DNA of 64,000 bases from Nitrospira sp. (GTDB lineage: Bacteria; Nitrospirota; Nitrospiria; Nitrospirales; Nitrospiraceae). Position numbers and translations under genes: made by a program. The notes beneath the pieces were generated by a model, which was not told where the DNA came from, did not search any database, and saw only the letters and a program-made list of their open reading frames with translations. Shown piece after piece: positions 27,648 to 31,550 of this stretch (positions within the stretch are counted from its first letter, which is position 1; each line of letters starts with the position of its first letter). Location: the NCBI GenBank assembly GCA_022226935.1, contig CP092081.1:3471547-3535546 (forward strand), in the 5' to 3' direction.

Positions 27648-27882
27648 TGCGACGCTTCGCAGCCTATCCTTGATTGTATGCGGTTCGATACACCCGTATC
27701 TAAATGGGTACGGTTGCGCGGCCCCGCCGGTCGACTGCCGATTTGAGACACGCATATTTTCCCCTTGCGCCACAGGGATTTCATCGTTACGCTGGCGCCG
27801 CATGGCAATCTACGTATCAGGTACGTAGATTGCCTTTCCTTCCGATAGCGCCGAACGATTTCGCTGACCAGGAGGCATCCCG

Positions 27883-28524
27883 ATGAGGATGTGGCCCATC
27901 ACCGGTATACTGACCCTCGTCCTTCTTTCCGCCTGCACGACCCCGCCGGAAATCAAACAGGCACTCGCGACGAAAGACCACGCGTACGCAGAAAATGAAC
28001 GGCTCATGCAGCAGTATCGCGAGCTCGTCAGCCGCATCACGACGCGTCATCAGCTCTGGTACCGCTATGTTCAGACCCGCCTGAAATTGAACTTGGCGCT
28101 GCAGTGGGCCACCACCAATCCGCGACTCATCGAGGTGGCAGATCCCGACCTGGCACAGGACGATGCCGCGCTGCTGGGTCCCGACGTGATGGCGGTGGTG
28201 AACCACATCCGCCTGAAGTCCTTGCCGGAACGCAAAGGGCCGACCGGGCAGCCCGTCTTCATGGCCGGCACAGGCGACATGAGCAATCTGGTTCAGAACC
28301 TGCCTGAGTTGATCAGCACGGTTGAACGGTTGGTGGAGCAGGACGCAAAGAAGCCCGCCGCTCTCGACCTGTCTGCCTTCGACCGGTATCGTACCAACGT
28401 CCAGGCTCTCCGCCGGATCAACGGTACCATCAAACACTATCTCGATATCGATGTCACCCTCGACCGGGGCGAGGTTCAATCCTTGGCCGAGGCGCTGCAG
28501 CAGACTGGAAGGAGCCTCCGATGA
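27883..28524 (+). CDS. Hypothetical lipoprotein, predicted alpha-helical
   Basis: Lipobox LSAC after a hydrophobic core. ATGA overlap with the next ORF. Confidence 0.75.
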   Translation: MRMWPITGILTLVLLSACTTPPEIKQALATKDHAYAENERLMQQYRELVSRITTRHQLWYRYVQTRLKLNLALQWATTNPRLIEVADPDLAQDDAALLGPDVMAVVNHIRLKSLPERKGPTGQPVFMAGTGDMSNLVQNLPELISTVERLVEQDAKKPAALDLSAFDRYRTNVQALRRINGTIKHYLDIDVTLDRGEVQSLAEALQQTGRSLR

Positions 28525-29231
28525 TCGGACGCCACGTCTCCTTACTCACACTCCTCGGGCTGCTCGTCGCGGCCCCAGGATGCCACTCGATCCACAGCGG
28601 ATCTGTCCGCGACCTCATCCAGCTCGAAGGCACCAAGATCGATGCCGCTCAAACCAACATCGATACCTTTCAGAAGGAGACAGAAGAGCGTATCAAGCTG
28701 CTGGAGAAGGCACGCGCTGAATTGCATCAGAGTTATAAAGATCTGCAAACCGTCGAAGCCAAACATCGCTTTGCTCTTGGCGCTTTTCGCCAGGCGACGA
28801 ACAAAAAAGGCGAAGCCGCCTATGCCGCAGCTTACCTCCTCAGCCTGATTCACATGGCTGAGGCCCAGGGCTTGGAGAAGGCGGTCTGGGATCAGTTCGA
28901 AGAGGACTTTTGCGGACTGCGGGATACGGCCAATGCCTTGAACGACTCCTGGAAACAGACCGCCACCCTGCACGCAGAACTCCAGCGTTTTGCCAAAAAA
29001 TCCGCCCTGGCTTCCGTGGACCCCGAACTCGTCAGCGCCCTGATGGACCAGGCGCCAGGCGGCTCGGAACGGATCATGGAGATCCTCGACCATTCCCGCA
29101 CCGTCAATGACGCGCTTGAGGAAGTGGTCGGGGCTCGGATTCTTCGCATCGGCGGATTGGACCGGGCGCAGAGCATGACCGCCGATCTCGTGGAACTCCT
29201 CGACCGCATGCAACGGGAAGAGAGACAGTAA
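28521..29231 (+). CDS. Hypothetical lipoprotein, coiled-coil-like
   Basis: Signal with APGC lipobox-like motif, heptad-rich EK/A helices, translational coupling. Confidence 0.75.
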   Translation: MIGRHVSLLTLLGLLVAAPGCHSIHSGSVRDLIQLEGTKIDAAQTNIDTFQKETEERIKLLEKARAELHQSYKDLQTVEAKHRFALGAFRQATNKKGEAAYAAAYLLSLIHMAEAQGLEKAVWDQFEEDFCGLRDTANALNDSWKQTATLHAELQRFAKKSALASVDPELVSALMDQAPGGSERIMEILDHSRTVNDALEEVVGARILRIGGLDRAQSMTADLVELLDRMQREERQ

Positions 29232-29242
29232 CGGAGGCCTCC

Positions 29243-29764
29243 ATGAACCGCAGCATCGAGGGTGTAGTCACCTTTCTTCAGGACAACGACAATCTGATCA
29301 AGCAGCTGATGGAGACCGCCGAGTCCGCCACGACGGAGATCGAGCAATTGGCGACACAGGTCGATCATGCCCGGGACGAGGCTCAGGTGTTGGTGGATCA
29401 ACTGGGCGCGGCAGAGTTCAGCATCGGACGGGAAGACGACACCAAGGTGCGCCAGACTGCCCTGCTGGAAGCGGTAGCAACGCTGCGAAAGAAATTCGAG
29501 ACCTATAAAAACGATCCCTTGCGGCGGGGCATCTATGCAGCCGAGATTGCCAACCTGTATCTGCAGCTAGCCAATACCTTCAACAACGAAACCGTCGCTC
29601 GTATCGTCCCGTTCGAAGCCGACGAAGTCGCGACCTACAAGGATCTGCTGAATAAAGCGATCCTGGACGCGGCCACTCGCAAGCGGCGCGCTGCCACTAT
29701 CAAGGCCGCCGCGAACATCTCCAAATTGGCTCTTGGTGTAGCCGGGAAGCTGGCTTTGGTGTGA
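29243..29764 (+). CDS. Hypothetical all-helical protein with hydrophobic C-terminal helix
   Basis: GGAGG SD, no signal peptide, ends AANISKLALGVAGKLALV, tight operon spacing. Confidence 0.75.
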   Translation: MNRSIEGVVTFLQDNDNLIKQLMETAESATTEIEQLATQVDHARDEAQVLVDQLGAAEFSIGREDDTKVRQTALLEAVATLRKKFETYKNDPLRRGIYAAEIANLYLQLANTFNNETVARIVPFEADEVATYKDLLNKAILDAATRKRRAATIKAAANISKLALGVAGKLALV

Positions 29765-29765
29765 C

Positions 29766-30554
29766 ATGATGAACCGCTGTGCCGCCACATGGATTTCGCT
29801 GCCGTTGATGGCGGCGCTCGGGGCCGGCTGTACACTCGATGCGGGCTCGCGGGGGCCATTTGGTCCGCAGGATCCGGAAACCGCCGTCCCCAAAATGGCG
29901 CTCCCTCCACAAGTCCCTTCCAGGCATGCCCTCGCCTTTACGGCCGATGAATCCCCGGGCCGACACCTCAAGCCCAAGATGGCCGGCACGGTTGCGGACA
30001 TAGCCTTGAAACGGTCGCCGAACCCGAGCGCGATACTCACTGCGCCCGAGATCGCCGCCTTACGGGAAGCGGCTGAGTCTGATCCCCGCGTGGCCGCGCT
30101 GCTTGGCGACCGCTGGGGTTTCATAGAGGCGAACAGGTCCGCCCCTGAGGGCAAGGTCGCCTTCGGCTGCTGTCGAGACGAAGCGCGCTTCGCCACCCTC
30201 ACCTACTTCAGCTACAGTCAGAACGTCGCCGTCGAGGTCCGATTGAAGGAGCAGCGCGTCATCGATGCCGCCCGGCGCGGGGGCTATCTCCCGCCTGAGG
30301 GGCCGCAGGACGTCGAACGAGGCATCGCCTTGGCTCGTGCCGATTCGCGACTTGCCGGCAACGTGCAATCCCTGCAGGGTCATGGGCTGTTGATGCAACC
30401 CGATATCGGCTTCTTGAAAAACGATCCGGGGTATGGACACCGCACGATTTGGATCACGTTTTCCCAAGGGCAGGACGGTGATCCGAAATTCTGGGCCGTC
30501 GTGGACCTGACCGATGACCGCGTGTTGGACGCGGGCCAGGAACCGCCCCGCTAG
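29766..30554 (+). CDS. Hypothetical lipoprotein resembling the N-terminal (D2/D3) domains of copper amine oxidases
   Basis: GAGC lipobox; two repeats of helix(A..DPRV/DSRL)-strands ending AVEVRL..RV / AVVDL..DRV, as in CuAO N2/N3 domains (by eye). Confidence 0.55.
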   Translation: MMNRCAATWISLPLMAALGAGCTLDAGSRGPFGPQDPETAVPKMALPPQVPSRHALAFTADESPGRHLKPKMAGTVADIALKRSPNPSAILTAPEIAALREAAESDPRVAALLGDRWGFIEANRSAPEGKVAFGCCRDEARFATLTYFSYSQNVAVEVRLKEQRVIDAARRGGYLPPEGPQDVERGIALARADSRLAGNVQSLQGHGLLMQPDIGFLKNDPGYGHRTIWITFSQGQDGDPKFWAVVDLTDDRVLDAGQEPPR

Positions 30555-30569
30555 GCGAAAGGAACCGGA

Positions 30570-31550
30570 ATGAATCGGATGGCAATCGGCTTGACTCTCT
30601 GGCTCGGCATCCTGATGCTTCCCATAACCGGCTCGGCGGAACCAGCCGCGGAACATGTGGAATGGGGTCGCTGGGCCCTCGATTATGAAGTTCGCGATAA
30701 CACGGGCCTCACGCTGCGGAACGTCTCCTACGGCGGGGAACTGGTCTTGGGCAAAGCCAGCATGCCGGTCGTGCGGGTCAAGTATGTGAAGGAACGCGTC
30801 TGGTGGAATCCCTTCACCTGGTTCGGATCCCGGGCCGACAGCGGCCGCTGCGGCCCGTTCCAAGATCGACTACGCTGGCAGGATCTGGCCCCGATCGCCA
30901 ACTGCGCCGACAACAAGGTCTGCGTCGAACGCGCCACCGTGAACGGCATACAATGGCTGGAGATAGGCATCTATGCGCGGATCGGCGAATACCACCTCTA
31001 CCAGGCCTGGCACTTCTCCGAGGACGGCGAGATGCGTCCCCTCCTCCATAGCCGCGGTCTCTCCTGTAACACCGACCACCATCACCACCCGTACTGGCGA
31101 TTGGACATTGACGTGAACGGGAACGGTCTGGATCAGGTCTTCGTGCATGATCAGGGCGGACCGGACAGCGGTTGGGGACCGGGCTGGCGAAAATATACGA
31201 ACGAACGGAACGACGTCAAAAGCCCCGCCACCCAGCGTGTCTGGTTCGTGCGAGACCAACCGACGGGACACGGCGTATGGATCCTGCCGGGCGACGGCTA
31301 TCTTCCCCTCAAAGACGACGGCGAACGGGACAGCTTCGGCGACCATGATGTAGCCATTCGGCGCGCGAGTTCGGCCGAAGATCTCCCCTGGGTCTTCGGC
31401 GCCCGTGGCCAGCTGGGATACGACGAAGACAACCAAGGCGTCCAAGAACAGGATGTGGTGGTATGGTATGTGGCGCACCTTCCGCACATGGCCGCCCTTG
31501 GCCCGACCAAATGGCTGACGCTGGGACCGACCTTAAAAGTGCAGCGGTGA
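30570..31550 (+). CDS. Secreted compact copper amine oxidase-like catalytic domain
   Basis: Signal peptide; VEWGRW..GLTLRNVSY, IGEYHLYQAWHFSEDG, HHHHPYWRLDIDVNG and DVVVWYVAHLPH align in order with the CuAO blocks IHWRNW..GPMISTVTY, VGNYDYIFDWIFHENG, HQHIYNFRLDLDVDG and DAVVWMTTGTTH. Confidence 0.75.
   Translation: MNRMAIGLTLWLGILMLPITGSAEPAAEHVEWGRWALDYEVRDNTGLTLRNVSYGGELVLGKASMPVVRVKYVKERVWWNPFTWFGSRADSGRCGPFQDRLRWQDLAPIANCADNKVCVERATVNGIQWLEIGIYARIGEYHLYQAWHFSEDGEMRPLLHSRGLSCNTDHHHHPYWRLDIDVNGNGLDQVFVHDQGGPDSGWGPGWRKYTNERNDVKSPATQRVWFVRDQPTGHGVWILPGDGYLPLKDDGERDSFGDHDVAIRRASSAEDLPWVFGARGQLGYDEDNQGVQEQDVVVWYVAHLPHMAALGPTKWLTLGPTLKVQR

Follow-up and report, generated by a model that had tools for sequence, protein, structure and literature searches.

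A split and shrunken copper amine oxidase homolog encoded by two adjacent genes in Nitrospira

Can the domains of a copper amine oxidase (CuAO) be divided between two exported proteins, and would such a pair still be an enzyme? The question is raised by two adjacent genes at positions 29,766 to 31,550 of a 64,000-nucleotide stretch of Nitrospira sp. DNA (GenBank assembly GCA_022226935.1, contig CP092081.1, positions 3,471,547 to 3,535,546 of the forward strand; the whole stretch is called the window here), which encode a lipoprotein (the partner subunit) and a secreted protein (the catalytic subunit). In the structures of characterised CuAOs, the enzymes are homodimers of 70-80 kDa subunits with the domains D2, D3 and D4 on one chain (PMC3382800). 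We found that the pair is almost certainly a split CuAO homolog, that it very probably binds copper at the aligned site, and that the evidence leans modestly towards the formation of a Tyr-derived quinone and the oxidation of amines. The best explanation overall, which we hold with moderate confidence, is a non-covalent two-subunit copper amine oxidase.

The catalytic subunit, a protein of 326 residues, matches the Pfam family PF01179 (E 1e-7, 31.6 bits against a curated cut-off of 27). When a 24-sequence family profile was compared with the PDB, Arthrobacter globiformis phenylethylamine oxidase (AGAO) was matched at E 6e-10 in three collinear blocks, and hhalign aligned the catalytic subunit with E. 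coli TynA (K-12 record) over 270 columns at E 4e-6, improving to E 6e-10 and a probability of 96.6% after 74 shorter relatives were added. The AlphaFold (AF2) model of the catalytic subunit has a mean predicted local distance difference test score (pLDDT) of 82 and a predicted template modelling score (pTM) of 0.81. All 50 of the best PDB matches listed by Foldseek for this model are CuAOs (best E 5e-16, template modelling score 0.69), and the closest entries are canonical CuAOs with 13-17% identity in the structural alignment. The protein thus has what is expected of a member of the superfamily, a D4 beta-sandwich and a PF01179 match above threshold. Residues 28-309 (282 aa) correspond by hhalign to residues 351-722 of the TynA precursor (372 aa), which leaves about 90 residues of TynA insertions without a counterpart. 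Judged by sequence and predicted structure, the 326-residue protein is genuinely homologous to the catalytic D4 domain of CuAOs, in a reduced form; a preliminary description made from the DNA alone had proposed both this homology and the absence of large loops, and both proposals held.

We mapped active-site residues by counting hhalign columns against TynA, with correspondence judged by alignment; TynA mature numbers are taken here as precursor numbers minus 30. Conservation was scored in a close set of 92 full-length homologs and in a wider set consisting of the best 146 of 1,144 family representatives. Tyr141, which aligns with the precursor of the topaquinone (TPQ) cofactor (Table 1), is kept in 91/92 close homologs and 138/140 wider representatives, and Tyr72, at the position of the Tyr that bonds O4 of TPQ, is kept in 91/92 and 131/134, respectively. 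Among the putative copper ligands, His170 is kept in 92/92 close and 140/141 wider sequences, His172 in 91/92 and 137/141, and His306 in 90/92 and 132/133, with the position of His171, between the first two, being variable among homologs. The AGAO profile blocks independently place Tyr141 on Tyr382 and His306 on His592. By alignment, then, the protein has the three His ligands, the precursor Tyr and the O4-bonding Tyr of the superfamily. The preliminary description had pointed to an H-x-H within HHHH, to a third His in VAHLPH (31470-31487) and to the precursor Tyr at 30990-30992; all of these correspond to the TynA residues, and the coordinates were exact.

Asp99 is a candidate for the catalytic base on the grounds of sequence: it is kept in 89/92 close homologs and 128/136 wider representatives (94%), and the aromatic-x-Asp pattern at this site mirrors Tyr381-Leu-Asp383 of TynA. 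Asp90, the residue chosen by hhalign, was considered for this role and dropped because its column is not conserved in the 92 homologs. Across the best 146 representatives, Tyr141, Tyr72, His170, His172, His306 and Asp99 are each conserved in at least 94% of sequences, and the three His in at least 97%. Such near-invariance is what a working active site would be expected to show, and not a decayed binding protein. Asp179, Asp181 and Asp295 (31104-31112 and 31452-31454) align with TynA Asp533, Asp535 and Asp678, which we take to form a buried Ca2+ site, and are 90-96% conserved in the wider family.

Two further pairs of residues covary. Cys94 and Cys166 are both Cys in 101 sequences and are mostly lost together; Cys94 is kept in 89/92 and Cys166 in 90/92 close homologs, and the pair is also present in versions of the protein that have no signal peptide. 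They are probably a disulfide or another kind of paired site. His173 and His303 (31077-31088 and 31476-31478) are His and His in 66 sequences and Tyr and Tyr in 28. We considered these two residues as extra copper ligands and rejected them because they covary as His/His or Tyr/Tyr; they look like a second paired site, which by strand alternation should lie on the opposite face of the sheet from the copper site.

The partner subunit has no sequence relatives in Pfam, NCBIfam or the PDB, either as a single sequence or as a profile. Its AF2 model has a pLDDT of 74 over the whole chain and of about 90 across the folded region, which follows a low-confidence linker of about 65 residues and consists of two tandem domains, each made of a helix and four strands (residues ~90-262, window ~30033-30551). 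When the model was compared with the PDB by Foldseek, the first 23 matches were all CuAO chains (best E 1.4e-5, about 200 columns). A 20-sequence partner profile is collinear with residues 127-314 of the TynA precursor in hhalign, at a weak score (E 0.035), and this alignment terminates at AVVDLTDDRVLDAGQEP opposite AVVDLEQKKIVKIEEGP; the hhalign alignment of the partner with the fused protein P0111 is likewise weak and collinear (E 0.05). By its modelled fold and these weak collinear alignments, the partner carries the D2-D3 domains of a CuAO, in agreement with the resemblance to D2/D3 suggested earlier for the upstream lipoprotein. The order of the genes, D2-D3 and then D4, is the domain order of single-chain CuAOs, and the break between the two chains falls precisely where D3 meets D4.

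Several Cys-containing motifs are found in the partners. Nitrospira partners keep F-G-C-C-R in a D2 loop (residues 133-137, window ~30162-30176), and non-Nitrospira partners end in tails that bear Cys: KTCECCDEKEVRT, VEHCCDGGQDR, ESPCIQ and KTPCS (L009:5336-6001, L005:5546-6001, L099:4254-4982 and L098:2227-4926). The tails and the F-G-C-C-R motif may be a built-in copper-delivery motif. A G-W-P-P-R/K motif is conserved in the linker ahead of the D2-like domain in the non-Nitrospira partners of six loci (L095, L096, L097, L098, L099 and L007), and Nitrospira partners have H-x-K-P-K-M-A-G where the others have G-W-P-P-R/K.

We found that the two genes stay together. Of 80 Nitrospiraceae species loci, 78 have the partner gene immediately ahead of the catalytic one, and the remaining two end at a contig edge at that point. 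A partner-type gene is also immediately upstream in 10/10 further loci, which include Arthrobacter oryzae, an Acidobacteriota metagenome-assembled genome and several metagenome contigs; overlaps of 4-8 nt are frequent, and the five of these ten partners that were scored with the partner hidden Markov model gave E values of 1e-17 to 1e-52. The two-gene layout recurs in Nitrospiraceae and in other phyla at 30-90% identity. Fused single chains also exist, with the partner module N-terminal, namely a 527-aa protein of Sphaerisporangium perillae and a 539-aa protein carried as a second copy by a congeneric Nitrospira, and even a 690-aa multidomain relative has, encoded upstream of it, a separate protein that ends in a partner module of 190 residues. 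The two-chain reading offered in the preliminary description is strengthened by this near-universal adjacency, by the fusions in the same order and by the near-invariant catalytic residues; the complex itself is a prediction from sequence. The idea that the split is merely an artefact of a frameshift or of decay in a gene for a single-chain amine oxidase has practically no chance of being right: one relative (G036) does have its catalytic gene in two frames, but each of the two genes here comes with a start, a ribosome-binding site and an export signal of its own, the same layout is found in 78/80 Nitrospiraceae loci and in other phyla, and both proteins are under clear purifying selection, so that the comparative data refute it.

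Table 1. Genes and active-site residues of the locus; positions are those of the window, and genes are taken from the list of open reading frames (ORFs).
Feature	Position	Strand	Description
Helical lipoprotein, 213 aa	27883-28524	+	lipobox; ORF list
Helical lipoprotein, 236 aa	28521-29231	+	lipobox; middle gene of the trio; ORF list
Helical protein, 173 aa	29243-29764	+	hydrophobic tail; ORF list
Partner subunit, 262-aa lipoprotein	29766-30554	+	lipobox; ORF list
Catalytic subunit, 326 aa	30570-31550	+	signal peptide; ORF list
Tyr72	30783-30785	+	aligns with the TPQ O4-bonding Tyr (TynA Tyr369, HPAO Tyr305)
Cys94 / Cys166	30849-30851 / 31065-31067	+	covarying pair near the active-site motifs
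Asp99	30864-30866	+	in C-G-P-[FY]-x-D; candidate catalytic-base Asp, alignment ambiguous
Tyr141	30990-30992 (TAC)	+	aligns with the TPQ precursor Tyr (TynA TPQ466, AGAO Tyr382); in I-G-E-Y-H-L-Y
His170-His173 (HHHH)	31077-31088	+	CACCATCACCAC; His170 and His172 align with the H-x-H ligands TynA His524 and His526
His303-Leu-Pro-His306	31476-31487	+	His306 aligns with the third copper ligand (TynA His689, AGAO His592)

The two genes are the last of five co-oriented ORFs that lie between uvrC and a gene for a LuxR-type regulator, with successive gaps of -4, 11, 1 and 15 nt (Table 1). The 15-nt gap separates the partner and catalytic ORFs, and AGGA is found 8 nt ahead of the catalytic ATG. Between the uvrC stop codon and the first helical lipoprotein gene there is a perfect hairpin with a 14-bp stem and a 3-nt loop (window 27804-27834), which may terminate uvrC transcription or act as an operator of the five-gene cluster. 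Export signals of both proteins were judged by sequence pattern. The catalytic protein begins with M-N-R and a hydrophobic stretch followed by G-S-A/E, which gives a signal peptide of about residues 1-23 (30570-30638), and the partner begins with a hydrophobic stretch ending in G-A-G-C, the Cys of which (Cys22, codon 29829-29831, at the end of the lipobox) is shared by 90% or more of the homologs. These patterns bear out the earlier suggestion that both proteins are exported. The genome is a single 4.23-Mb contig, and elsewhere in it we found no second PF01179 match and no canonical CuAO.

We searched 1.84 billion cluster representatives exhaustively with a profile and obtained 1,144 matches at E <= 1e-3, of which 204 reach E <= 1e-30; the wider family comprises about 1,100 clusters at 50% identity from several phyla, including Actinomycetota and Acidobacteriota. 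Within Nitrospirota, the catalytic gene is present in 26 of 301 sampled genomes, all of them from a single family, in which two genera have it (in 10/10 and 15/26 genomes, excluding this genome). Close homologs carry the name Nitrospira sp., and the homolog of Ca. Nitrospira defluvii is 79% identical. Versions of the catalytic protein without a signal peptide exist. The fused 539-aa copy (L014:1233-2852, G263:C12) is also without a signal peptide, and the ORF just upstream of it ends in ...KGDDDCCD. One cytoplasmic pair (L005:667-6876) is immediately preceded by an operon of four genes for a soluble di-iron monooxygenase (two Phenol_Hydrox subunits, MmoB and a Fer2 reductase) and is followed by an FAD aromatic-ring hydroxylase. 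On a metagenome contig (L096:1543-6939), a glyoxal-oxidase-like copper radical oxidase of 596 aa is encoded four genes upstream of a lipoprotein/mini-D4 pair. The Nitrospiraceae catalytic gene that matches in two frames (G036:C1:441326-442379; profile positions 6-200 and 203-318) may be a broken copy. Seventy-five long relatives have an N-terminal catalytic module followed by immunoglobulin (Ig)-like domains (He_PIG 13, Big_9 8, PKD 7), and also by carbohydrate-binding or lectin modules (CBM_4_9 5, Sde0182_C 3, CBM60 2, Ricin-B 2, and others). Secreted enzymes that attack polymers outside the cell are built in this way, and these fusions to Ig-like and carbohydrate-binding or lectin modules suggest that substrates of the family are often extracellular or bound to polymers.

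In the literature searched, no account of a CuAO that is split or minimal came to light. An 'amine oxidase' of Ca. Nitrospira, NOB01_19_62, is among the genes reported as encoded and transcribed in a wastewater study (PMC11327836). The locus L073 is on the same contig as NOB01_19_62, and a crude ORF count places the L073 catalytic gene at number 60-75; NOB01_19_62 is probably this catalytic gene, annotated yet unstudied.

The data show the homology, the fold, the division between D3 and D4, the matching and conservation of residues and the linkage of the genes; from these, we infer complex formation, copper binding, quinone formation, a reaction and a substrate. As a two-subunit copper amine oxidase, the pair would work as follows. 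The lipoprotein would supply D2-D3 and tether the complex to the membrane, facing the periplasm, and the D2-D3 chain would dock non-covalently on the secreted mini-D4 beta-sandwich, which would have 303 residues in its mature form. By analogy with the canonical enzymes, the mini-D4 would bind Cu(II) through His170, His172 and His306, and Tyr141 would convert itself with O2 to a topaquinone-type cofactor, held by Tyr72. A primary amine would then be turned into an aldehyde, NH3 and H2O2, with Asp99 as the probable base.

How far do the hallmarks of the known enzymes carry over? Known CuAOs have three strictly conserved His, a precursor Tyr in T-x-x-N-Y-D/E, an O4-bonding Tyr and an invariant Asp base (PMC3382800), and of these hallmarks four map cleanly on the catalytic subunit, whereas the consensus motif does not and the base is uncertain. 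A classical TPQ CuAO (EC 1.4.3.21/22) contains bound Cu(II) and mature TPQ, forms H2O2 in an amine-dependent way and has D2, D3 and D4 on one polypeptide; here, the three domains are divided between separate genes, each with an export signal. Several observations weigh against an amine oxidase of the TPQ type. The canonical T-x-x-N-Y-D/E context is absent, with R-I-G-E-Y-H(-L) in its place, and the sequence confirms that N-Y-D/E-Y is replaced by E-Y-H-L, as first described. Across the family, the residues that flank the cofactor Tyr vary (A/S/N/E/K at -1 and D/R/H/V at +1). Automatic alignments set TynA Asp383 either on the unconserved Asp90 or three residues off Asp99. The roughly 90 lost residues of D4 include stretches of the long canonical insertions, so the canonical homodimer, which long hairpin arms of D4 hold together, and the buried substrate channel may not form. 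The Cys94/Cys166 and His173/His303 pairs lack counterparts in known CuAOs, and the chemistry could be different. Finally, no biochemical data on any member of the family were found in the literature.

The strongest alternative is an enzyme that uses the CuAO scaffold and copper with another cofactor, such as a Tyr radical or a cross-linked Tyr/Cys, or for another reaction, on alcohols or other polymer groups. The loss and variability of the N-Y-D/E context and the two covarying pairs would fit such an enzyme, as would relatives built like secreted carbohydrate-active enzymes, with carbohydrate-binding and lectin modules, and the glyoxal-oxidase-like copper radical oxidase near one locus. However, the conserved residues are exactly those that canonical enzymes require for TPQ, namely the Tyr that gives the cofactor, the Tyr that bonds O4, three His and an Asp close by; N-Y-D is retained in 7 relatives with no sign that these form a separate class, and His173 and His303 are unlikely to be metal ligands, given that they can be Tyr and Tyr. 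We consider a different chemistry unlikely.

The three genes upstream of the pair bring in another alternative. The helical trio (27883..29764, + strand) adjoins the pair in most of the 80 Nitrospiraceae loci and is inverted but still adjacent in four of them, and its middle gene is found in 23 of the 301 sampled Nitrospirota genomes, all of them among the 26 that have the catalytic gene. No informative relatives of the trio were found in Pfam or the PDB, where only designed coiled coils matched. Such tight linkage to three helical envelope proteins in Nitrospiraceae would be expected if the catalytic subunit were a non-catalytic copper-binding or structural envelope protein with a CuAO fold, acting as a scaffold, a copper store or a sensor together with the helical lipoproteins. 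The degenerate canonical motif fits this as well, and no aldehyde dehydrogenase or amine transporter accompanies the pair in the window, as judged from the ORF list and Pfam. In contrast, Tyr141, Tyr72, Asp99 and the three His are near-invariant at about 30% identity, in several phyla and in proteins with or without signal peptides, which would be hard to account for in a protein that does not catalyse a reaction. In the examined loci of other phyla, moreover, the pair stands without the trio. We therefore did not count the trio as part of the enzyme, and its absence from pair loci outside Nitrospiraceae indicates that the pair has its own function. A non-catalytic role is, in our judgement, improbable, and more so than a different chemistry.

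The two-subunit amine oxidase reading can be set beside four groups of known enzymes. AGAO (PDB 1av4, 3wa2, 2cwt and others) is the best match in sequence and fold for the catalytic subunit, and the best fold match for the partner too; it shares the D4 beta-sandwich, the H-x-H and distal His, the position of the cofactor Tyr and the D2-D3 domains. In contrast to the two exported chains and E-Y-H-L of Nitrospira, AGAO is a single cytoplasmic chain of 638 aa that forms a homodimer and has N-Y-D-Y; the Nitrospira D4 is about 90 residues shorter (as measured against TynA), has the additional Cys/Cys and His/His pairs, and is about 17% identical to AGAO in the structural alignment. TynA (ECAO; PDB 1oac, 1dyu, 6ezz) is periplasmic, as is the Nitrospira pair, but its precursor is one chain of 757 aa that has a D1 domain in addition, and its operon context includes a phenylacetaldehyde dehydrogenase, no gene for which is near the Nitrospira pair. 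The lysyl oxidase of Pichia pastoris, PPLO (PDB 1n9e, 1w7c), belongs to the CuAO family and accepts peptidyl lysine through an open active-site funnel, so that it could serve as a model for a reduced enzyme anchored at the cell surface, although a polymer-bound substrate in Nitrospira is speculation; PPLO is a marginal sequence match (E 0.55-0.76) and is single-chain, large and glycosylated. Animal LOX and LOXL2, which contain lysine tyrosylquinone, are copper/quinone amine oxidases too, act outside the cell and have a small catalytic domain, but their fold is unrelated and their cofactor differs (PMC3382800), and they are absent from the sequence searches and from the 50 best fold matches listed.

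Along these lines, the split mini-oxidase could be a surface-tethered quinoprotein that oxidises polymer-bound amines, a proposal that we regard as doubtful. The substrate in Nitrospira could then be the lysines of the trio lipoproteins or amino-sugar polymers of the matrix. If this were true, the pair would be a bacterial counterpart of lysyl-oxidase cross-linking on a minimal scaffold, with a cofactor made without the supposedly essential N-Y-D/E. A role specific to nitrification, which the preliminary description had raised by linking amine deamination to a nitrifier, was rejected: the link is weak, with the family found in several phyla and lifestyles, including Actinomycetota and Acidobacteriota, and with no match to amoA in this genome, in a search whose control was uninformative.

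Taken together, these data show that the CuAO scaffold tolerates a split between D3 and D4, the loss of about a quarter of D4 and free variation on both sides of the cofactor Tyr, while the copper ligands and both key tyrosines are fixed throughout the family. If TPQ is made, the pair would be the smallest natural system for self-processing quinone biogenesis and would redefine which residues this process needs. Given the size of the family and its frequent fusion to carbohydrate-binding modules, proteins now called 'hypothetical protein' may include a class of extracellular oxidases that has so far gone unrecognised. For Nitrospira, the pair would be a conserved envelope enzyme, present in 10/10 sampled genomes of the genus, that would yield ammonia and peroxide.

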